From contig OY282374.1 in assembly GCA_958295815.1 (NCBI GenBank), positions 514,856 through 578,855 of the forward strand: DNA of 64,000 nucleotides, in the 5' to 3' direction. Positions 20,720 through 61,458 of the stretch are shown here, one piece after another; positions within the stretch are counted from its first letter, which is position 1; each line of letters opens with the position of its first letter. The translations under genes were made by a program, and so were the position numbers. The stretch is from Candidatus Poribacteria bacterium. GTDB taxonomy: Bacteria; Poribacteria; WGA-4E; WGA-3G. The notes under the pieces were generated by a model that saw nothing but the letters and a program-made list of their open reading frames with translations, was not told the origin of the DNA and did no database searches.

Positions 20720-21730
20720 TTAGTTTGACGTTTCCAACGTTTTGAAGAAATTAACTAAGTCTGTGCCGTGTGTGCTGGCGTTGACTTTTTTATCGATTTC
20801 CAGAATTTTCCCCTCTTTATCGATAATAATAGATAATCGATCGATCCTTCCTTCAAGGACATTTGTCGCACCATATAGGAGTGAAAGATTGCGACTGGTG
20901 TCTACTAAAAGAGGGAAATTCAACTGATTTTCTTCGGAAAATCTCTGGTGTGAATCGGCGTCATTTACAGTAATTCCAAAAATCTGAGCATCGTATTCGG
21001 CAAAACTACTCGACTCATCACGGAGCGAGCAAACTTCTGCCGTTCAGCCAGTACCAAAGTCGCGCGGATAAAACGCGAGTACAACGTTCTTTTTTCCACG
21101 AAATTCACTTAATTGGTGCGTTTTACCACTGCCATCAACAGCAATAAAATCAGGGGCAGTTTGTCCGGCTTCTACCTTCGGTAGCACCTCTTTAAGCTGG
21201 ACAACCACATCTTCGCCGTGTGTTTTAGTGTTAACTTCTCTATCAATAGCACGGATGTATCCGGATTTGTCGATGATAAAAGTTGTCCGTTTTGATGCTT
21301 TGAAGTTTTCGATGATACCGCTGTACTGCGTACTCACCTCAAATTCGGTATCTGCCAATAGAGAAAAGCCGAATTTTTGCGCTGCTCTGAATTGCTTGTG
21401 TGATTCGACGGAGTCAACACTCACGCCGAAAAGCACACTATCAGTTGCTTCTATCTCGCTCAAACTATCCCGGAGCGAGTTGAGTTCGGCTGTTCAGCCA
21501 CCGGTAAAATCCTTCGGATAAAAGGCGAGAACGACATTCTTTTTACCTAAGTAATCGCTGAGATTCCGCTCAACACCTTCTTCATCTTTGAGTGTAAAAT
21601 CTGGGGCTGTCATCCCCGCTGTTAGCGTATCTGGCGTTGTCACTGCTTCCTCCCCTGAAGCTGCTGGAATTATAAGGGCTGTCATGAGGATAGCAGCCCA
21701 GACGCTCGCATTAAGCCGCGTTAGAAACAT
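20720..21730 (-). CDS. secreted tandem-domain BCP/PrxQ-type peroxiredoxin with two in-frame TGA (putative selenocysteine) codons at the peroxidatic positions
   Basis: three ORF-track pieces (21494-21832, 21044-21463, 20720-20923) share one frame; FYPKDFTGG-TGA-TAELNSLRD and FYPRDFGTG-TGA-TAEVCSLRD align to the Prx motif FYP.DFT.GC(T)xxxC.FRD; N-terminal signal peptide. Confidence 0.75.
20999..21041 (-). promoter_or_regulatory. bSECIS-like hairpin downstream of second in-frame UGA (GCUCGCUC-CGUGAU-GAGUCGAGU, outer GGCA/UGCC)
   Basis: stem-loop with apical GU; shares CUCGCUCCGNGAU with the first hairpin. Confidence 0.45.
21455..21479 (-). promoter_or_regulatory. bSECIS-like hairpin 14 nt downstream of first in-frame UGA (CUCGCUC-CGGGAUAGUUU-GAGCGAG)
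   Basis: perfect 7-bp stem with GU-containing loop read from the mRNA strand. Confidence 0.5.
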
Positions 21731-21883
21731 CACATTATGCCTCCACGAATTTTTTATCGCAAGTTTTCGGCTTACAGCTTCGCCGAAAAATATTATTATC
21801 GAAATTATACGCCAATTTCCTGTGAGTGTCAAGAAAACTCCGATCGGCGTAGCACTGTTTCGTTTTTTGATAGCCTTGTAGTC

Positions 21884-22750
21884 TTAGTTTGAAAGAATGT
21901 CATGTTCTTCAAGCCATGTCTTCAAAGGCACGTCGTCATCCTTAGGTGAAAAATGCCCATTTGCATTAGTTCCACCACCGAGAAGCTGCTGTCGAATCGG
22001 GTCATTTCGTTCAAACATCTCTTTCGGGATGGTCATGTTATCTTTGCTCCGTAGCCATCGATAGCCGTATCCATAAAAGAGTCCCTTGCGGGTGATGTCT
22101 GAATCATTTTCGCTGCGGGAATGCCATAGACGTCGGTCGAAGAAGACCGCGTCACCAGGTTTACAACAGACGGGTATTGCCCCCTTCGGAAGCGAACCGT
22201 CTGTCGGACGGTCTTCGAGTTTATTCCATAGGTGACTTCCTGGGATGATATAGAAGTTTCCGCGTCCAGGCTCTGAGCAGTCAGATAGCCAGTAGACGAC
22301 TTTGATAGAGAGACGGGGTCGAGGTGAGCTTTCCATCTCAATATTAACACGTCCACTATCCTGATGCCAGCCGAGCGGTGTCGGTTTACCACGCACTTCC
22401 TCTGGACGTGGTGGTGTAATGATGAAATGGCTGTGGTAGGAGTAGATATTCCACCCCAAAATGCCCCAGATCTTCGGAAACGTTTTATACCAGTCCAAAA
22501 TGTTCACGAAGACCTGATCTGTGCCGAGGAAGTTCGGATAGAAAAAATTGTTATGCGCAGCCAGTTGGTTTTTGGTATATGGGTCGTAACCGGCATCGAG
22601 GTGTTGTTGATAGATGTTGTCCACCCGCGTTTCGAGCCGTTCAACGAGATCTGGCGGGAGTGCATTTTCGATGATTAAATACCCATCTTCATTCATAGCA
22701 CTGCGTTGTTCATCTGTGAGCTGGTGTTGTAGATGTCTTTCGTCAAGCAT
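21884..22750 (-). CDS. phytanoyl-CoA dioxygenase (PhyH) family Fe(II)/2-oxoglutarate oxygenase
   Basis: WHQDSG...H.D double-stranded beta-helix facial triad; PhyH-like length. Confidence 0.75.
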   Translation of the reverse strand: MLDERHLQHQLTDEQRSAMNEDGYLIIENALPPDLVERLETRVDNIYQQHLDAGYDPYTKNQLAAHNNFFYPNFLGTDQVFVNILDWYKTFPKIWGILGWNIYSYHSHFIITPPRPEEVRGKPTPLGWHQDSGRVNIEMESSPRPRLSIKVVYWLSDCSEPGRGNFYIIPGSHLWNKLEDRPTDGSLPKGAIPVCCKPGDAVFFDRRLWHSRSENDSDITRKGLFYGYGYRWLRSKDNMTIPKEMFERNDPIRQQLLGGGTNANGHFSPKDDDVPLKTWLEEHDILSN

Positions 22751-24006: not shown

Positions 24007-24825
24007 ATGCCAGTTTTTGATGCAGAAGCCTTAGAATTTTGGGAAGAGAATGGTTACGTTGTTGTGCCAGAAGCCGTCCCTCTTGAGAACTGCCGCGCTG
24101 CGGAACAAGCCGTTTGGGATTTTCTTGAAATGGATCGTGACGATCCAGACAGTTGGTATCCTGACCCACCGCGTCGGAGTATCATGGTAGAGATTTATCA
24201 GCACCAAGCCTTGTGGGATAATCGCCAATACCCGCGTATACATCAGGCTTTCTCAGAAATTTGGGAAAACGAGAAACTTTGGGTTAGTTTTGATCGCGCA
24301 AGCATGAATCCACCTGAACGTTCGGATTGGAAATTCACCGGACCTTACTTGCATTGGGATATGTCGTTGGACGATATGCCGGTGCGTTTAAAGGTACAAG
24401 GTGTGCTGTATCTGGCAGATACACCCGGCAATCAGGGGGCATTCACCTGCATTCCAGGGTTCCATCGGAAATTGGAGTCATGGTTAGATGACCTGCCTGC
24501 CGATACCAATCCACGGGAAGTCGTGCGAGACTACCAAGCCGAAGCGGTTCCGGTTGCCGGGAAAGCCGGTGATCTTGTAATCTGGCACAGTGCATTGCCA
24601 CACGGTAGTAGCCCGAATTCTGCCGAGCGTCCGCGGATGGCGCAATACATAACGATGTCACCAGCACCAACGAACGGAAATCCTGAGTCCCGGATTACCG
24701 GATGGCGCGAACGATTAACAGGTCTCGGCAAAGAGGCGAAAGAGAAGGAACATTACCAGGGGAAGACAGCCGAGTTGACACCTTTAGGGGAAAGACTCCT
24801 TGGGCTTGAATCGTGGGATGTCTGA
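24007..24825 (+). CDS. phytanoyl-CoA dioxygenase (PhyH) family protein
   Basis: PhyH-like N-terminus and HWDMS...H.H.S core. Confidence 0.7.
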   Translation: MPVFDAEALEFWEENGYVVVPEAVPLENCRAAEQAVWDFLEMDRDDPDSWYPDPPRRSIMVEIYQHQALWDNRQYPRIHQAFSEIWENEKLWVSFDRASMNPPERSDWKFTGPYLHWDMSLDDMPVRLKVQGVLYLADTPGNQGAFTCIPGFHRKLESWLDDLPADTNPREVVRDYQAEAVPVAGKAGDLVIWHSALPHGSSPNSAERPRMAQYITMSPAPTNGNPESRITGWRERLTGLGKEAKEKEHYQGKTAELTPLGERLLGLESWDV

Positions 24826-38954: not shown

Positions 38955-39671
38955 ATGAAATTAGTTATTATTCTAGGGATGTTTATTTTTTTGACTTTCT
39001 CTGCCTCAGCAGGGACGTTTGTAGAGACATTCGATGGTGGGGATTTGGATGAATGGCGGGAAATTATCTTGTTAGATCTTAAGATTAAGCCTGGGACTTG
39101 GGAAATTATTGACGGTGAACTTCACGGGACAATGCGTCATATAGGGCTGCCACGTCTGCTGACGACGGGTGATGAAAAGTGGCGTAATTACACCATTGAA
39201 GTTGATGTATTCCCTCTCGAAAAACACAGTCCCGGAAATATTGGAATAGCTGCGCGAATTCAGGGAACTGTCGGGATAATTAGTCTTATTGGGGATTATG
39301 CCTTCCCATTTCCGGCGAACCCCAACCCTGGACTAACAGTGACATGTTTTGGCGGTGATTTTCACGACAATATTCTCCACTTATTTGGGACTGAAGTTAG
39401 CCCATTGTTGGAATTAGGAACATGGTCTACTATGAAACTCCAGGTGAATGAAGATGTGTTTACGCTTTGGCTGAATGGTGAGCAAGTTTTGCTAGCGAGA
39501 GATGACACCTTTGACTTTTCTACAGGTCGAGTAGGTTTGGTTCTCACAGGTTATACGGTGAAGTTCGATGATTTGGTGATCACCGGCGATGGCATCCCAA
39601 ATAAGGGAAAATTATCAGTAACCCCGACAGACAAACTCGCGACAATGTGGAGTAGTTTGAAGCAGTTTTAA
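38955..39671 (+). CDS. secreted DUF1080-type (concanavalin-like / 3-keto-disaccharide hydrolase-like) protein with conserved C-terminal tail ...DKLATMWSSLKQF
   Basis: signal peptide MKLVIILGMFIFLTFSASA, WEIIDGELHG DUF1080-like motif; paralog of 41851-42597. Confidence 0.6.
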   Translation: MKLVIILGMFIFLTFSASAGTFVETFDGGDLDEWREIILLDLKIKPGTWEIIDGELHGTMRHIGLPRLLTTGDEKWRNYTIEVDVFPLEKHSPGNIGIAARIQGTVGIISLIGDYAFPFPANPNPGLTVTCFGGDFHDNILHLFGTEVSPLLELGTWSTMKLQVNEDVFTLWLNGEQVLLARDDTFDFSTGRVGLVLTGYTVKFDDLVITGDGIPNKGKLSVTPTDKLATMWSSLKQF

Positions 39672-41850: not shown

Positions 41851-42597
41851 ATGATGAAATCAATTATTATTATCGCCATACTTTTCCTTTTTCCCTTCTG
41901 TACATGGTCAGGCACGTTTCTGGAAACTTTCGATCACGGTGATCTTGAGGGTTGGCAGGAACTTAGTGCCCATGACGCTTTACCCGGTTCATGGGAGATC
42001 ATTGATGGCGAACTTCAGGCAATAATTCCTGGGGCATCTCGTTATCTCATAACGGGTGATGAGACATGGAAAGATTACAGTATCCAGGTTGATGTGATGC
42101 CTCTTGAAAAACCAGGTCCCGGAAATATCTCGATTCTCGCCCGTGTTAAAGGAAATTGGGCAGTTGATTGTGGGATTACCGACCTGATTTTCAATGATCC
42201 TGAATCAAAAGTGGTATGTTCTAGCCTTGATGTTCACGCAAATGAAGGCACCGTTCTGCACATTGAACCTTATCCGGCTTTAAGATCAAATAAATGGTCT
42301 AGACTGAAATTAAGTGTCAATGGAGATCACTTTAGTTTCTGGATAAATGAGAAGAAGATTGTGGAAACGGGAGGAGAGTTTGTCCTCATACAAGACGGTC
42401 GGGAATTTCAACTAAAGACAATGGATCTCTCACGCCACCCGGTAGACACAGGCGGGGCAGGTTTTGGTCTCGCGTATCATACAGCGAGATTCGATAATAT
42501 TACGATCATCGGCGATAGTATACCTGACAAAGGTAGATTACCAGTATCGCCTCAAGCAAACCTATCGACAATGTGGAGTAGTTTGAAGCAGTTTTAG
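41851..42597 (+). CDS. secreted DUF1080-type protein, paralog of 38955-39671, C-terminal tail ...NLSTMWSSLKQF
   Basis: RBS aggagg, signal peptide, SWEIIDGELQ motif, identical last 9 residues to the paralog. Confidence 0.6.
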   Translation: MMKSIIIIAILFLFPFCTWSGTFLETFDHGDLEGWQELSAHDALPGSWEIIDGELQAIIPGASRYLITGDETWKDYSIQVDVMPLEKPGPGNISILARVKGNWAVDCGITDLIFNDPESKVVCSSLDVHANEGTVLHIEPYPALRSNKWSRLKLSVNGDHFSFWINEKKIVETGGEFVLIQDGREFQLKTMDLSRHPVDTGGAGFGLAYHTARFDNITIIGDSIPDKGRLPVSPQANLSTMWSSLKQF

Positions 42598-42755: not shown

Positions 42756-43925
42756 ATGAGTTTCAGTGTTTTTGAACTATTAACGTACGAAAGAATGATT
42801 TTTTTCGCAATTTTGAGCTGTGGACTTTATGCCAGTTACACTGATTTCCGCTACGGGAAAATCGCTAACGGTTACACCGTGTTTTTAATCGGCTTTGGTA
42901 TAATCTGTCAAATGGTATTCGTAAGTGAAGGAGACATCACCTGGATACACAGTTGTGTTACCCTTTTCGGTGGATTAGGTATCTCTTTTGTATTGTTTTA
43001 TACCGGGATATGGGCAGCTGGGGATGCTAAACTGTTTTGGGGTATCAGTTTACTGATGCCACCGAGTGCTTTTACCCGTACCCCGGAGACGCAATTTTAT
43101 CCGTTGATCTTGATGGTGAATATTTTTCTCCTTTTTTTGGTCTATATCACATTACAGTCCGTCTATAAATTGACCTTTCAACAGCAGCGGATGCTGATTG
43201 TCAAAGGTTTTGTTGCACAAGCAAAGCAATTTCCGAAACGCCTTCTTCAGGTGCTTTCTTATGTCGGTGTAAGTGGACTGGCTTTTTATATTCCCGCACA
43301 CCTTGGTATAGAGTTAGATGTCGCAATCCGCATAGCTCTATTCATAGCGATTGCTTTTGCTTTCAATAGAGTAGTTGAAAAGTACATCCCTCAGAAATAC
43401 AGAATCACATTTCATATTCCGTTTCTCCTTTTAGCTCTCTTTTTGGCTATCCCTTCGCTAATTCAACTCGGTATTTTTATCGTCATTATCTTTGTTTTTC
43501 CATGGTTTCTAATCATGTTTGACTCTGTAGTCCGTTCCGTTTTTACAAAACAGGTTCCTATTGAAAGTCTTCGTCCTAACATGATCCCTGCGGAACGCAT
43601 CGTCAAAATTGAAGGACAAAACATGGACGATAAATACGTGAAAACTCCTGCAGGTTTTGCAAATCCGGCGCGAGATAGCATTATTGTGGATGTTTCATCT
43701 GAAGGGTTAACATCGCCCCAGGTTGAGCACTTGCGCCAACTTGCTGCAGAAGGTAGTTTGAAGGAATACGAAAATAGACTGCTTATTCAGGAAAAAATCC
43801 CATTTGCTTTGATGATTGTTTTGGGCGGCTTAGTGACACTACCTGCAAAGGGGATTGCTTATTCGTTTTTTCAGAGTGCAGAGATGCATCAGGTTTTGGA
43901 GAGAATAGGTTCGTTCTTTTCTTGA
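42756..43925 (+). CDS. A24-family (CpaA/TadV-type prepilin peptidase-like) aspartyl protease domain fused to a long C-terminal membrane/soluble extension
   Basis: YTDFRYGKIAN (first catalytic Asp motif D-x-R-x-x-x-I-P/A-N) and WAAGDAKLF (GGGDVKL-like second Asp); 389 aa versus about 170 aa for CpaA. Confidence 0.5.
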   Translation: MSFSVFELLTYERMIFFAILSCGLYASYTDFRYGKIANGYTVFLIGFGIICQMVFVSEGDITWIHSCVTLFGGLGISFVLFYTGIWAAGDAKLFWGISLLMPPSAFTRTPETQFYPLILMVNIFLLFLVYITLQSVYKLTFQQQRMLIVKGFVAQAKQFPKRLLQVLSYVGVSGLAFYIPAHLGIELDVAIRIALFIAIAFAFNRVVEKYIPQKYRITFHIPFLLLALFLAIPSLIQLGIFIVIIFVFPWFLIMFDSVVRSVFTKQVPIESLRPNMIPAERIVKIEGQNMDDKYVKTPAGFANPARDSIIVDVSSEGLTSPQVEHLRQLAAEGSLKEYENRLLIQEKIPFALMIVLGGLVTLPAKGIAYSFFQSAEMHQVLERIGSFFS

Positions 43926-55517: not shown

Positions 55518-56156
55518 ATGACTTCCAACGAGAACCAAGTTCCAGAAGATCCAACAGCAGAGGAAACGGAAGCAGAGCAGACCTCTGGTAATAAAGTATT
55601 TAGAATTATCTGTATGACGTTTTGCCTTGCGGTAACGGTGCTGTTTCTTTGGGTTTGGCATCACCAAACGCAGTTCAACGACCACTATCGGAAAGCAACT
55701 TTTCTGATGCGCAACGGCGAAGCAAAACAGGCGATTGAAGTGTATCAGAAAGCAATCAAAAATAAGGCTCGCACGATTTTCTTCGCGAAAGAACCTTCAG
55801 CTTATAACAACCTTGGACAGGCGCATCTGTATGCAGAAGAATATGCCGAAGCGATCGCTAACTTTAAAACAGTAATTGAGATGGCACCCGATATAGCTGA
55901 GGGTTACATCAATCTCACAACTGCGTATCTCCGACAAAATTTACCAGCTGAGGCGCGGACTTCGTGTCTGCACGCCCTTCAAATTTTTCCAAAGACTGCT
56001 CTACTCCACTACAACCTCGCGTGTGCTTATGCGTTAGAGGGTGAATCCCAAAAAGCAGTTGACTCACTCACGCAAGCGGTAAGTCTCAACCCAGAACTCA
56101 AGACTTTTGCACAACAAGAAGACGCACTTAAAGGAGTTGTGTCTGAACTTCCGTGA
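55518..56156 (+). CDS. membrane-anchored tetratricopeptide-repeat protein
   Basis: TM helix plus three to four TPR units (AIEVYQKAIKN..., YNNLGQAHLY..., YINLTTAYL...). Confidence 0.7.
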   Translation: MTSNENQVPEDPTAEETEAEQTSGNKVFRIICMTFCLAVTVLFLWVWHHQTQFNDHYRKATFLMRNGEAKQAIEVYQKAIKNKARTIFFAKEPSAYNNLGQAHLYAEEYAEAIANFKTVIEMAPDIAEGYINLTTAYLRQNLPAEARTSCLHALQIFPKTALLHYNLACAYALEGESQKAVDSLTQAVSLNPELKTFAQQEDALKGVVSELP

Positions 56157-56278: not shown

Positions 56279-57067
56279 TTACCGCTTCAGTTTACCCCAT
56301 GTCGTTGTCAGTTTGCCGCGAGCAGAAACATCAAGCGTTTCGTTGATGATTTTCTGGATGTCAGCTTCAGAGAGTGCGTAGTTGGCTAACATCAATTCAT
56401 CGATTCGGCCCTGAAAGAAACGGGGGCAGCATCCATTATTTTCGCCTCCAAATTTCAACGATCTGTCCGGCATACTCCGACCAGGTCCCTTCTGTGAGAT
56501 AACTTTGCCATCAGATTCCCCGTTGATATAGAAACGCGCTTCGCTCCCATCCCACGCAAGCGCAACATGGGTCCACTCTTTCGCCTTCAGCTTACCGTCA
56601 GAAATATGGTAGCCGGGGTTATTGGTGTCGTAGAAATAGTAGGCAAGTTGGCCGGCACCGGGTTCGATTTGCAGATAATAGGTGTTTTTGAAGAAAATGG
56701 TGAATTTATTCTCTTGACCACCCGCTGGAAGTTCGTCAGGATAAACCCACGCCATCATCGTAATCTCTTCGTCCATATCGACTTCATCGGAGTGCGCAAC
56801 CTCAATAAAATCGGCTTTACCGACCTTACCAGCCATTTGCACAGCGTCCCCAGAAATGCCTTCAGCCCACTTTATATCGCCGTTGAATTCGCCGACTAAG
56901 CCAGCCGTTTCATCTTCAGTCTTATCCCCTTTGCCTTCGTCGAAATGCCAGACATATAACTTCTCACCGAGTTGTTTCACGTTGCCCTTTCCACCTGCAG
57001 TGAATCCTACTTGGCAGATAGATAGGCTGAGAAAAACGCATAGCATTAGAAAAACTTTGGTTCTCAT
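56279..57067 (-). CDS. secreted LamG-like (Laminin_G_3 / concanavalin-like) protein with C-terminal tail ...GKLTTTWGKLKR
   Basis: signal peptide MRTKVFLMLCVFLSLSI, LYVWHFDEGKGD LamG_3-like onset, RBS ggagg. Confidence 0.65.
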   Translation of the reverse strand: MRTKVFLMLCVFLSLSICQVGFTAGGKGNVKQLGEKLYVWHFDEGKGDKTEDETAGLVGEFNGDIKWAEGISGDAVQMAGKVGKADFIEVAHSDEVDMDEEITMMAWVYPDELPAGGQENKFTIFFKNTYYLQIEPGAGQLAYYFYDTNNPGYHISDGKLKAKEWTHVALAWDGSEARFYINGESDGKVISQKGPGRSMPDRSLKFGGENNGCCPRFFQGRIDELMLANYALSEADIQKIINETLDVSARGKLTTTWGKLKR

Positions 57068-57186
57068 CAGTAATTCCTCCGTATAGAATAAGAGAAGGGC
57101 GATGTAAGAACCCGCCCTTCCGGTAGAACTTGGCAATAGGCAGGCTTTGTGACGCTGCCACTATAACAGAGGGTGTTTAGCTGCTC

Positions 57187-57957
57187 CTACATTTTGAGCT
57201 TGCCCCATGTTGTAGCAAGTTTGTCACCGGGGTCCACAGCGAAGAAAACGCCGTTTTCCATATCCTGATTAATCTCATCAACAGAAAGGGCGCGATTGTA
57301 GATGGCTACCTCATCAACCAAGCCAATCATACCGGGGAGTCCCGTTTGTGCCTTGCCGATGCGGAAGACGACTTCAATGCTGTTAATTTTGCCCTTTGGT
57401 GGTGCGAATTCAACGTCCAATTTACCATCAATGTATTGACGAATCATATCCCCATCGAAGGTAGAAGAGACGTGGTGCCATGCTTCCAATTTCGGCTTAA
57501 TGGTCTGCTTGTTCCGGGAACCTTGCCATCCTCCGATGTTAATCCAGGTCTCAATTTGCGGAGCACCGGTAAACTGTGCGCTCCACTGGAGGCAATAACC
57601 ACCGACGTTTGCTGAACTCCTACGTCCCATCAGGTTGGAGTCCCCTTGAGATTCTTCAGGGAAGTACCATCCCTGAATTGTCAGTTCATCCGTGATGTCG
57701 AGTTCAGGGACTGCGTCAACCTCTACAAACTGATCGGAATTTTCAAGATGAACAGCACCGCCAATTTTGCCATCTTTCGACCAGACTGCACCTTCCAAGG
57801 TGCCTTCAATATTATTTCCACTTACATCTTTCACCTTGCCGCCGTCGTCTTCATCAAAAGTGAAGTACAACATGAGTGCCTTATCGTCATTTATTGCCCA
57901 CGTGTTGACACTTAGGCTCAAGGCGATAAGGCAGAAAACAGTGATAACGGATTTCAT
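57187..57957 (-). CDS. secreted LamG-like protein, paralog of 56279-57067, C-terminal tail ...GDKLATTWGKLKM
   Basis: signal peptide MKSVITVFCLIALSLSVNTWA, LMLYFTFDEDDGGKV LamG_3-like onset. Confidence 0.65.
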   Translation of the reverse strand: MKSVITVFCLIALSLSVNTWAINDDKALMLYFTFDEDDGGKVKDVSGNNIEGTLEGAVWSKDGKIGGAVHLENSDQFVEVDAVPELDITDELTIQGWYFPEESQGDSNLMGRRSSANVGGYCLQWSAQFTGAPQIETWINIGGWQGSRNKQTIKPKLEAWHHVSSTFDGDMIRQYIDGKLDVEFAPPKGKINSIEVVFRIGKAQTGLPGMIGLVDEVAIYNRALSVDEINQDMENGVFFAVDPGDKLATTWGKLKM

Positions 57958-59811: not shown

Positions 59812-60624
59812 CTATGAGGTCGGGTTCGTTGGTGTTCCAGCATCCATCACAAGAGGAAAATGGTCACCTACCAATTTATCACCATCGTTAACGGTAACAA
59901 AAGGTTTCATAACGTGGCTTCCGCTGGCATCGTATAGCGTTTCACCTGTCATATAATGCACTGCAATCGCACGCCGAGGACTACCACTGGTGTTGTCGTG
60001 CGAACCGTGCCATGTTAAGGAGTGATGGTAATGAACGTGTCCTTTCGGTACCGGGCAGAGTTCCACGGCTAATTCGTTATCTTCAAAGTGGTCGGGCATG
60101 GAATGGATGTCCTTGACGGAATGCAGAAACCCAATCTGATTGCCCCAATGATAAGAGCCAGGGACCATACGCATACATCCATTACTTTCATCAACATCGT
60201 CCAAGGCGACCCAAGCACTTACCTGACTCGTTTTTGGCGTAAGAATCGGCCAATACGGTGAATCCTGATGCCACATATTTACACCGCCCACTTTCGGTGG
60301 TTTATATTGGATCTGGTCGTGCCAGACGCGTAACTCTGTTGCTGATGTTAGTTGCCCGATTTCTTCTACGATAATTGGGTTATAAACGAGTCGATGGTAG
60401 GCTGGACTCGCCTCCCAAATGTTAACAACTTGCCAGACTGGACTCTCTTCTTTGCGACCGAGATTAGCGATGTGCACCGGCTGCGAAATATCCGCTTTCT
60501 CGTAATCGTCAATAACACGTGCCAATTCTGACCGTAGTTCCTCAACCTGATCATCGCTTAAAACACGGCTTCCAAGGAGAAAGCCTTTCTCACGAAATGT
60601 GTCAACTTGGGTTTGGTTGAGCAT
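59812..60624 (-). CDS. phytanoyl-CoA dioxygenase family protein (tandem paralog 1)
   Basis: WHQDSPYW...ALDD...HYHH...WHGSHDN; about 85% identical to the neighbour. Confidence 0.75.
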   Translation of the reverse strand: MLNQTQVDTFREKGFLLGSRVLSDDQVEELRSELARVIDDYEKADISQPVHIANLGRKEESPVWQVVNIWEASPAYHRLVYNPIIVEEIGQLTSATELRVWHDQIQYKPPKVGGVNMWHQDSPYWPILTPKTSQVSAWVALDDVDESNGCMRMVPGSYHWGNQIGFLHSVKDIHSMPDHFEDNELAVELCPVPKGHVHYHHSLTWHGSHDNTSGSPRRAIAVHYMTGETLYDASGSHVMKPFVTVNDGDKLVGDHFPLVMDAGTPTNPTS

Positions 60625-60645
60625 ACTTCCCTCCCATAAAAAGAC

Positions 60646-61458
60646 TTATATGTTAGCCTTCGTCGGCTTTCCCGCATCCATCACAAGCGGAAAATGGTGA
60701 CCTGCCAATTTATTACCACCATTAACGGTAACAAAACGTTTCATGATGTGATTTCCGCTTTCATCGTAGATGGTTTCGCTCGTCATATAATGCACCGCAA
60801 TTGCCCGACGCGGACTACCGCTGGCGTTGTCATGCGACCCGTGCCATGTTAAAGCGTGGTGATAGTGAACGTGTCCCTTCGGTACAGGACAGAGTTCTAC
60901 CTCCAACTCATTATCTTCAAAGCGATCTGGCAATGAATCAATGTCTGCGACCTCGCGCAAAAATGGCATCTGACTACCCCAGTGATAGGAACCGGGGACC
61001 ATACTCATACACCCGTTGCTTTCGTCAGCATCGTCCAACGCAACCCAAGCACTCACCTGACTCGTTTTCGGCATGAGAATTCCCCACAACGGCGAATCTT
61101 GATGCCAACGGTTGACACCACCAACTTTTGGCGGCTTGTATTGGATTTGGTCGTGCCAGACGCGCAACTCCGTCGCCGACATGAGTTGTCCAATCTCTTC
61201 CACAATGGTCGGGTTGTGAACGAGTCGGTGATAGGCAGCACTCGCCTCCCAAATGTTAACGATTTGCCAAACCGGGCTTTCTTCTTTACCGCCGAGGTTG
61301 GCAATACGAACGGGCTGCGGAACCTCAAGTTTTTCGTAGCTATCAATGACCCGCGCCAATTCAGCACGCAATTCATCAACCTGTTCATCGCTTAATACGC
61401 GGTTTCCGAGAAGAAAGCCTTTTTTACGAAATGTGTCAACCTGAGTTTGGTTGAGCAT
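60646..61458 (-). CDS. phytanoyl-CoA dioxygenase family protein (tandem paralog 2)
   Basis: same motifs; identical first 11 residues MLNQTQVDTFR. Confidence 0.75.
   Translation of the reverse strand: MLNQTQVDTFRKKGFLLGNRVLSDEQVDELRAELARVIDSYEKLEVPQPVRIANLGGKEESPVWQIVNIWEASAAYHRLVHNPTIVEEIGQLMSATELRVWHDQIQYKPPKVGGVNRWHQDSPLWGILMPKTSQVSAWVALDDADESNGCMSMVPGSYHWGSQMPFLREVADIDSLPDRFEDNELEVELCPVPKGHVHYHHALTWHGSHDNASGSPRRAIAVHYMTSETIYDESGNHIMKRFVTVNGGNKLAGHHFPLVMDAGKPTKANI

Follow-up and report, generated by a model that had tools for sequence, protein, structure and literature searches.

To our knowledge, the C-terminal sorting tags known so far come in two designs only: a short signature followed by a transmembrane (TM) helix and a basic tail, as in LPXTG, PEP-CTERM, GlyGly-CTERM, MYXO-CTERM and PGF-CTERM, or a folded domain, as in the C-terminal domain (CTD) of the system for type IX secretion (T9SS). 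Here we describe a tail of neither design in a 64,000-nucleotide stretch of contig OY282374.1 of a Candidatus Poribacteria bacterium (the whole stretch is hereafter the window), in which four signal-peptide proteins, two with LamG and two with DUF1080 domains, terminate in KL[AT]T[TM]W[GS]xLK plus 1–2 residues. This tail is a tag of about 17 residues that keeps strictly to the C-terminus, is shared across unrelated folds and co-occurs with signal peptides. It is apparently a previously undescribed member of the class of C-terminal sorting tags, and we regard it, with moderate confidence, as a short linear sorting or docking tag that is read by one dedicated envelope partner. Poribacteria, an ecologically important phylum, are dominant sponge symbionts and also have pelagic, lake and sediment members.

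The shared tail and its four carriers in the window

A six-frame regular-expression scan places the motif at four positions of the window only, each 1–2 residues ahead of the stop codon of a long open reading frame (ORF); the four ORFs and tails quoted in the original prediction, and the extreme C-terminal position claimed for the motif, are thus borne out by the translations. A stricter expression matched three times, against a mean of 0.0 over 200 shuffles. The carriers and their tags, the latter read from ORF translations and the scan, are as follows.

38955..39671, + strand: DUF1080-a carrier (DUF1080/3-keto-disaccharide-hydrolase-like), 238 aa, with signal peptide, ConA-like jelly roll and tag; PF06439 at 50.7 bits, residues 22-209
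39612..39668, + strand: C-terminal tag of DUF1080-a, LSVTPTDKLATMWSSLK followed by QF
41851..42597, + strand: DUF1080-b, a DUF1080 paralog, 248 aa, with signal peptide, jelly roll and tag; PF06439 at 45.5 bits, residues 25-219
42538..42594, + strand: C-terminal tag of DUF1080-b, LPVSPQANLSTMWSSLK followed by QF
56279..57067, − strand: LamG-1 carrier (Laminin_G_3), 262 aa from the ATG at 57067; PF13385 at 86.4 bits, residues 87-238
56282..56335, − strand: C-terminal tag of LamG-1, LDVSARGKLTTTWGKLK followed by R
57187..57957, − strand: LamG-2 carrier (Laminin_G_3), 256 aa, with signal peptide, ConA-like jelly roll and tag; PF13385 at 72.5 bits, residues 74-230
57190..57243, − strand: C-terminal tag of LamG-2, FAVDPGDKLATTWGKLK followed by M
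57895..57957, − strand: predicted Sec signal peptide of LamG-2, MKSVITVFCLIALSLSVNTWA, with the residues IN after a cleavage site placed by eye; based on the sequence, the N-terminal helix 2-19 of the AlphaFold2 (AF2) model and a hydrophobicity heuristic

The ATG at 57067 was used for LamG-1, whose mechanical ORF start is the TTG at 57136. Each of the four proteins opens with a typical Sec signal peptide. Both LamG proteins belong to Laminin_G_3 (PF13385, gathering threshold 27.6 bits) and both DUF1080 proteins to DUF1080/3keto-disac_hyd (PF06439, 26.8 bits), while in all four the distance from the end of the Pfam domain to the C-terminus is 24–29 residues. A TafC fimbrial protein model (NF052521) was rejected for the LamG proteins, where it scores 32–36 bits over the LamG portion only, against a curated cut-off of 410 bits. 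The protein tails read …GKLTTTWGKLKR in LamG-1, …GDKLATTWGKLKM in LamG-2, …DKLATMWSSLKQF in DUF1080-a and …ANLSTMWSSLKQF in DUF1080-b; the two LamG proteins are 29% identical and the two DUF1080 proteins 45%. LamG-1 has an S-A variant of the upstream E/D-P block, and DUF1080-b has N for K at −5 and S for A at −3, counted from the tag Trp. A protein identical to DUF1080-a (P0121) was found on a 5.13 Mb contig.

Aligned on the Trp, the tag has the profile [LTF]-[AP]-V-[ED]-[PA]-x-[GD]-K-L-A-T-T-W-[GA]-x-[LIV]-K, with about 17 conserved residues. The region ahead of it is rich in Gly, Asp, Glu and Pro, a composition that fits a flexible linker, and the final tag Lys is followed by 1–6 residues that are mostly basic and rich in Arg, Ser, Gln and Lys. 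Among 161 tag instances, Lys occupies −5 in 158 and +4 in 159, and Val occupies −10 in 155, though this position lies outside the search pattern; in the same upstream block, Glu or Asp is counted 116 times and Pro 103 times, with Pro or Ala at −8 in 144. Since the V-[ED]-P block is conserved although the search pattern did not contain it, it gives independent support to a conserved unit of about 17 residues. The motif first proposed, KL-x-T-[MT]-W-[GS]-x-LK, is therefore real but too short, as the unit adds the upstream [AP]-V-[ED]-[PA] block.

Ortholog searches of a 5.8-billion-protein collection gave relatives at 40–100% identity, with 120 of 165 listed for LamG-2 and 63 for DUF1080-a. Among the matches listed, the tail is retained in almost all full-length relatives of both proteins, and all LamG-2 orthologs (51–96% identity) keep it. 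In the LamG alignment (48 orthologs, mean column identity 64%), W251 and K255 are invariant and V241, P243, L247 and T249 are conserved in at least 90%; in the DUF1080 alignment (37 orthologs, mean column identity 50%), L228, W232 and L235 are invariant and K227, A229, T230, K236 and F238 reach at least 90%, so that the tail ranks among the best-conserved segments of both. An alignment of 40 full-length carriers has a mean column identity of 13%, yet within the tag V, K, L, T, W and K never vary. With such near-invariance, one antibody or one mass-spectrometry search could follow all carriers.

The motif always adjoins a stop codon, which is where a repeat, recombination site, terminator or regulatory RNA at the 3′ ends of genes would lie, as would a translational arrest peptide; a conserved Trp/Gly near the C-terminus recalls the arrest peptides SecM and TnaC. 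Nevertheless, the Leu, Ala, Thr, Gly and Lys positions of the tag draw on the full range of synonymous codons, and the window tails of unrelated carriers share only 1–3 identical codons at 6–9 identical residues, their DNA being identical at 22–28 of 45 nucleotides and the DNA downstream unrelated. On this codon evidence, selection on the tag acts at the level of the protein and not of the DNA, and the DNA or RNA form of the explanation is contradicted by the data. Arrest peptides regulate a specific downstream gene, whereas the contexts of the tag are heterogeneous, and we give the explanation as a whole hardly any credence.

Nearly every position of K-L-A-T-T-W-G is conserved, covering all faces of a helix or strand, which points to recognition by a protein pocket rather than by a lipid surface. 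Such a tail could also be read in the periplasm by a protease or by protein quality control (Prc/Tsp/CtpA-like, or DegP/DegS of the PDZ type), as a degron or as a removable pro-peptide that controls the abundance or activation of the modules, for it is unstructured, C-terminal and exposed, and the aromatic residue that ends the tails of the DUF1080 subfamily (…LKxF) recalls PDZ ligands. However, PDZ domains read the last 3–4 residues and the free carboxylate, whereas here the conserved block is found upstream of a terminal stretch of 1–6 residues that differs in length as well as in sequence. A degron on hundreds of stable-looking modules across a phylum would have no obvious rationale, and no S41 or PDZ protease recurs near the carriers; we consider this role very unlikely.

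Distribution, carrier families and export signals

A back-translated pattern, K-L-A-T-T-W-[GA]-x-[LIVMF]-[KR], was scanned against one genome per species (185,579 species) and gave at least 118 eight-kb blocks with at least 159 motif instances, in carriers of 210–300 aa. In all 159 listed, the motif ends 1–12 residues from the stop, mostly 1–5. The corresponding metagenome scan gave at least 120 stretches with at least 173 instances, 163 of the 173 ending 0–5 residues from the stop. HMMER, run exhaustively with a tail profile of 30 columns on 1.84 billion representatives (50% identity), matched 350 clusters at E ≤ 0.001; a recognisable core is present in 145 of the best 150, ending 0–7 residues from the C-terminus in 140 of these 145, and the few internal cases resemble read-through fragments. 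A word-indexed protein search with 40 columns of the tail returned only 23 short gene fragments, with little information on the diversity of carriers. The reservation that the motif might be confined to the four window proteins, which accompanied the original prediction, is overturned by these counts.

Of the 118 genome blocks listed, 108 belong to named Poribacteria, nine to unnamed metagenome-assembled genomes and one to a scaffold binned as Deltaproteobacteria. The latter (L097; JAFDHL010000343.1, 3.7 kb), the sole differently named genome match, contains no more than an ORF fragment of 28 residues with the tag at its end and is probably a mis-binned or pseudogenised piece. Three cluster look-ups, which covered divergent tags, the Kelch, DUF4960 and unclassified carriers, and low-GC or lake-type contigs, returned only names of Candidatus Poribacteria except for one '[bacterium]' and one assembly of the sponge Geodia barretti; all LamG-2 and DUF1080-a relatives with an organism name are likewise Candidatus Poribacteria. 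The metagenome carrier contigs span a GC fraction of 0.35–0.64, have identifiers that suggest varied environments, and more often show Thr or Ser at −3. Judged from this sample of sequences, the tag looks restricted to the phylum Poribacteria, within which it looks phylum-wide and extends beyond sponge symbionts to lake and pelagic contigs. Paralogs number four in the 64-kb window and at least 3–5 per chromosome, and tandem arrays are frequent.

When the last 30 residues were removed, 136 carriers fell into 24 BLAST clusters: LamG with 83 carriers, DUF1080 with 15, and 22 others. Pfam searches with cluster representatives added CBM_4_9, CBM9_1, F5_F8_type_C (discoidin), DUF3108_like and ankyrin domains, and many representatives had no Pfam match. 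Among 40 full-length representatives, there are 21 LamG proteins, six DUF1080 proteins, five Kelch propellers, two ankyrin proteins, one CBM9 and one DUF4960. The metagenome scan contributed a two-cohesin protein, a Big_5 lipoprotein and further Kelch proteins. By far most carriers are small binding or scaffold modules with no catalytic role; possible catalytic exceptions are the DUF1080 domains and a metzincin-ankyrin protein. With the tag, a rule of one line suffices to list the binding modules that uncultivated Poribacteria export, including the Kelch and ankyrin proteins.

Several individual carriers deserve mention. The metzincin-ankyrin protein (L066:5580-7445, + strand; 622 aa) combines the zinc-protease motif HELGHAFGLGD with ankyrin repeats and a further C-terminal region, and its sequence makes it a likely case of a catalytic domain, one of few such carriers. 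The two-cohesin protein (L205:194-1675, + strand; 494 aa) has a signal peptide, two cohesin modules and the C-terminal tag, and raises the possibility of cohesin-dockerin-type assemblies in the lineage. Extracytoplasmic function (ECF) sigma factors were also seen that a hydrophobic segment links to Kelch, DUF1080 or BNR/Sortilin domains outside the cytoplasm (L196:10048-11961, − strand; P0342; L036:5132-7999, + strand). At the end of the L196 Kelch protein stands a degenerate tag, KLPTKWGELR, with 11 more residues after it; P0342, on a 1.4 kb contig, has a canonical tag at its end and may be a read-through of two genes. As clues to topology these fusions are ambiguous, given the possible read-through in the one and the degenerate tag in the other.

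Export was assessed with a simple hydrophobicity heuristic that asks for a signal-peptide-like N-terminus and no further TM segment. By this measure, 127 of 139 tagged ORFs (91%) have a signal-peptide-like N-terminus, as against 125 of 607 untagged ORFs (21%) of the same loci (Fisher p = 6e-57), an enrichment that the original prediction had led one to expect; the tagged ORFs that fail are mostly truncated or mis-started. Lipoboxes are rare (3 of 147). The core KLATTWGKLK has a mean Kyte-Doolittle hydropathy of about −0.5, and the tails contain no hydrophobic 19-mer. Not being hydrophobic, the tag cannot span a membrane, and the initial impression that it lacks a TM helix is confirmed. A cargo peptide for a bacterial microcompartment or encapsulin, an idea suggested by the microcompartments that Poribacteria encode, was rejected in view of the Sec-type signal peptides of 91% of the carriers.

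Structural context and comparison with known C-terminal signals

AF2 models were built with the ortholog alignments. In LamG-2, the domain has a predicted local distance difference test (pLDDT) score above 90, whereas residues 239-256 fall below 50 and are drawn with a detached helix at 243-255; in DUF1080-a, most domain residues score above 90, and the tail (220-238) scores below 50, with a short helix at 229-236. Neither tail makes contact with the sandwich, and in these models the tag lies outside the fold of its carrier. Strong conservation at low structural confidence is the usual picture for peptides that take up a fold only when they bind a partner. Foldseek matched the LamG-2 model to lectin-like jelly rolls (E = 5e-12), namely AbnA domain 4, BoNT Hc lectin domains and a trans-sialidase lectin domain, and the DUF1080-a model to CBM66, solved DUF1080 structures, 3-keto-glycoside hydratases and GH16. 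From these matches and the Pfam descriptions, both families are ConA-like jelly rolls. Their portrayal in the original prediction as unrelated fold families is thus mistaken, and the argument that the tag crosses folds holds only through the Kelch, ankyrin, cohesin, Ig-like, CBM and discoidin carriers.

The common superfold, to which not only both window families but most carriers (LamG and DUF1080) belong, raises the question of whether the tail is no tag at all but the closing strand or helix of the jelly roll, acquired by descent together with the fold; a conserved final beta-strand had been allowed for from the outset. The Pfam models of both families stop ahead of the tail, and nothing in Pfam matched within the tail region of the four window proteins, while AF2 leaves the tail unpacked and off the sandwich. 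Moreover, the tag also occurs on Kelch propellers, ankyrin solenoids and cohesin, Ig-like and CBM folds. LamG and DUF1080 are very large domain families, yet just 350 clusters of 1.84 billion representatives carry the tag, and the named carriers are all Poribacteria. A fold element is contradicted by these data and retains only a vanishing probability.

The short helices drawn by AF2 in both families bear on a further explanation, in which the tail is an in-plane amphipathic C-terminal helix, like those of PBP5/6 and MinD, that lays its Leu-Trp-Leu face and Lys residues in the periplasm-facing leaflet and so retains the modules at the membrane with no need of a protein partner. Like the membrane-targeting helices of those proteins, the tag is short and cationic, contains Trp and Leu, is predicted to be helical and follows a flexible linker at the very C-terminus; a helical wheel brings L(−4), W(0) and L(+3) together on one side, with Lys at both ends and a basic tail. 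However, the helix has a pLDDT below 50, its hydrophobic face amounts to three residues, its mean hydropathy is negative, and its helical hydrophobic moment is modest and does not exceed the strand moment. Membrane-targeting helices conserve amphipathicity, not sequence; in PBP5/6 and MinD only the physicochemical character is kept, whereas here conservation is residue by residue and far stricter than that class leads one to expect, and hundreds of unrelated proteins show next to no variation at the polar-face K, T, T and G or in the upstream V-E-P block. One carrier, in addition, is already anchored as a lipoprotein. Direct membrane anchoring is, in our estimate, improbable.

The tag resembles PEP-CTERM in being a lineage-restricted C-terminal tag with many paralogs on unrelated Sec-exported families, and in combining a short Pro/Glu signature ([AP]-V-[ED]-P here and P-E-P there, similar but not the same) with a basic extreme C-terminus. 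The 10–12 residues past the signature, however, are polar or amphipathic here (KLATTWGxLK) and form a hydrophobic TM helix there. With the T9SS CTD it shares a C-terminal signal without a TM helix, an N-terminal Sec signal and many unrelated cargo proteins within a phylum-level lineage, but that CTD is a folded beta-sandwich of 70–100 residues as opposed to about 17 conserved, predicted unstructured residues; the window proteins have only 24–29 residues past the Pfam domain and no extra domain in the AF2 models, and so fall outside the T9SS class. Dockerins resemble it as one C-terminal appendage that follows a flexible linker on many modules and makes them interchangeable parts for one scaffold, and one tagged carrier (L205) itself has two cohesin modules; nonetheless, dockerins are folded, Ca-binding, about 70 residues long and found mostly on enzymes, in contrast to a short linear motif mostly on binding modules. 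MYXO-CTERM, GlyGly-CTERM and LPXTG are phylum-wide C-terminal tags with dozens of carriers per genome for one dedicated enzyme, a many-to-one pairing that the present tag recalls, but they consist of a signature, a TM helix and a basic cluster, whereas the tag has no TM helix, invariant Cys, Gly-Gly or LPXTG. Read as LPXTG, L-A-T-T-W-G has an extra residue ahead of the Gly and no TM helix after it.

Profile searches agree with these comparisons. No NCBIfam/TIGRFAM model is common to the carriers, and tail-only peptides have no match at E ≤ 10; neither PEP-CTERM (TIGR02595, E up to 10) nor the T9SS models TIGR04183 and TIGR04131 matched any of the four proteins of the window, of 40 carriers chosen for diversity or of 10 peptides made up of the tail alone. 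The comparison with TIGRFAM sorting-signal hidden Markov models (HMMs) that the original prediction called for gave no match. A sequence search of the PDB with the tag gave chance-level 10-mers only. The motif strings were found in no paper of the literature collection searched, and no paper was found linking Poribacteria to sortase or exosortase systems. Kamke et al. 2014 reported TIGR04183-like tails in Poribacteria without T9SS genes, and no Por structural genes in Poribacteria single amplified genomes; the present motif is not described there (PMC3909097). A 17-residue, non-hydrophobic, unstructured tag on hundreds of exported proteins fits neither of the two known designs, which implies a different recognition mechanism. 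The likeness to a sorting or attachment tag seen at the outset therefore stands as regards a family-crossing C-terminal tag on signal-peptide proteins without a TM helix, whereas a sorting function goes further than these observations.

Proposed role, neighbouring genes and other features of the window

The neighbourhoods of the carriers were searched for a partner by clustering the 822 ORFs of the 118 listed loci. Recurrent neighbours are PhyH, Gfo/Idh/MocA, FG-GAP/ASPIC, PQQ/PD40 and WD40 propellers, TPR proteins, a methyltransferase and the ECF-sigma fusions, of which several are simply abundant in Poribacteria. One cluster that had been taken for a tricorn/S41 protease (cluster 5) is actually a PQQ/PD40 beta-propeller lipoprotein. 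No gene for a sortase, exosortase, rhombosortase or PorU-like enzyme was seen near the carriers by neighbour clustering of these 1.5 Mb of loci, nor did the co-occurring processing enzyme anticipated by the original prediction appear among the 822 ORFs. This negative carries limited weight, since the genes of sorting enzymes usually lie apart from those of the proteins they act on, and the phylum specificity of the tag and its many copies per genome are suited to phylogenetic profiling for a partner. TPR proteins recur near tagged genes at 10 loci, and one stands in the window (55518-56156, + strand), where the gene of a small membrane-anchored TPR protein runs convergently towards the LamG pair. 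C-terminal peptides are among the ligands that TPR domains can take, but the association may reflect only the abundance of TPR proteins. One further neighbour in the window is a peptidase.

42756-43925, + strand: A24 membrane protein with a Peptidase_A24 (prepilin peptidase) domain and an archaeal-type A24 C-terminal domain (Arc_PepC), directly downstream of DUF1080-b

A sortase- or PorU-like enzyme is also what a transpeptidation mechanism would call for: the chain would be cut within the motif and its new C-terminus, or an invariant Lys, joined to peptidoglycan, lipopolysaccharide or another envelope polymer, with release of the basic end piece. Residue-by-residue conservation is what an enzyme recognition site shows, the Lys residues at −5 and +4 are near-invariant, the residues past the last Lys are short and variable as a leaving group would be, and the tag co-occurs with export signals; the T9SS-like CTDs of Poribacteria, present without T9SS genes, suggest unknown routes of surface attachment (PMC3909097). 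Set against this are the negative gene search and the lack of any sorting-signal HMM match, and that the known systems of this type either keep the substrate at the membrane by a TM helix or use a folded C-terminal domain, neither of which is present. Transpeptidation is accordingly an unlikely explanation.

For a sorting or docking tag read by a dedicated envelope partner, the following sequence of events is envisaged. The carrier would be exported via Sec and its signal peptide cleaved, after which the folded module would expose the unstructured tail. One dedicated envelope component, which might be a receptor, a scaffold, a translocon or a transpeptidase-like enzyme, would then recognise the tail residue by residue and either bring the carrier to a shared location, for example the outer membrane or the cell surface, or dock it there. 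The cell would thereby gain glycan- and protein-binding modules that can be exchanged for one another. We infer that all the tags are read by a single partner.

Several points weigh against this proposal. No receptor, protease or transporter was found near the carriers, and no recurrent neighbour in the 118 listed loci resembles sorting machinery. The A24 peptidase was considered and rejected: a homolog is present in 0 of 118 loci, and the signal peptides of the carriers are of class I, not class III, so a link of the peptidase to the tag is unlikely. The tag has neither a TM helix nor a folded C-terminal domain, and known sorting mechanisms are thus not directly applicable. The genome and metagenome counts and the taxonomic exclusivity are samples, not censuses. 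A simple secretion across the outer membrane is hard to square with one carrier (L227) that is also a lipoprotein, and outer-membrane secretion likewise with the two inner-membrane-tethered sigma-factor fusions that carry the tag or a degenerate copy. Finally, known sorting tags also mark many enzymes, whereas the present carriers are overwhelmingly non-catalytic, which speaks for docking more than for secretion in general.

Docking or retention of interchangeable modules, rather than general secretion, is hence the form of the proposal that we favour, because nearly all carriers are non-catalytic, one is a lipoprotein and inner-membrane-tethered sigma fusions are tagged, the last of these being anecdotal. 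A more specific version, to which we give less than an even chance, makes the tag the address label of an unrecognised, Poribacteria-only envelope sorting or surface-assembly pathway. Its dedicated machine would read a short, unstructured C-terminal peptide that has neither a TM helix nor a folded domain, and would display or export a large, interchangeable repertoire of lectin-like modules together with Kelch and ankyrin eukaryote-like repeat proteins. If such a pathway exists, the displayed classes (Kelch, ankyrin and lectin-like) would be those to which a part in the interplay of sponge symbionts with their hosts is ascribed.

Two other features of the window were noted. Tandem, near-identical paralogs of 270 aa lie at 59812-61458 (− strand) and also at 21884-22750 and 24007-24825; their homologs in related loci belong, on our reading of the sequences, to the PhyH-like neighbour family, in agreement with the phyH expansion reported for Poribacteria (PMC3909097). 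At 20986-21832 (− strand), a PrxQ/BCP-type peroxiredoxin gene with two tandem domains has an in-frame TGA at the expected peroxidatic Cys of each domain (…FYPKDFTGG-TGA-TAE… and …FYPRDFGTG-TGA-TAEVC…), with the frame open past both. The 64-kb window contains no tRNA-Sec. The first TGA is followed by only a weak 7-bp hairpin (z = −0.3), and the second has a strong hairpin 4 nucleotides downstream (−21.8 kcal/mol, z = −3.5, equalled in 0 of 200 shuffles); the gene may thus encode a double selenocysteine peroxiredoxin.

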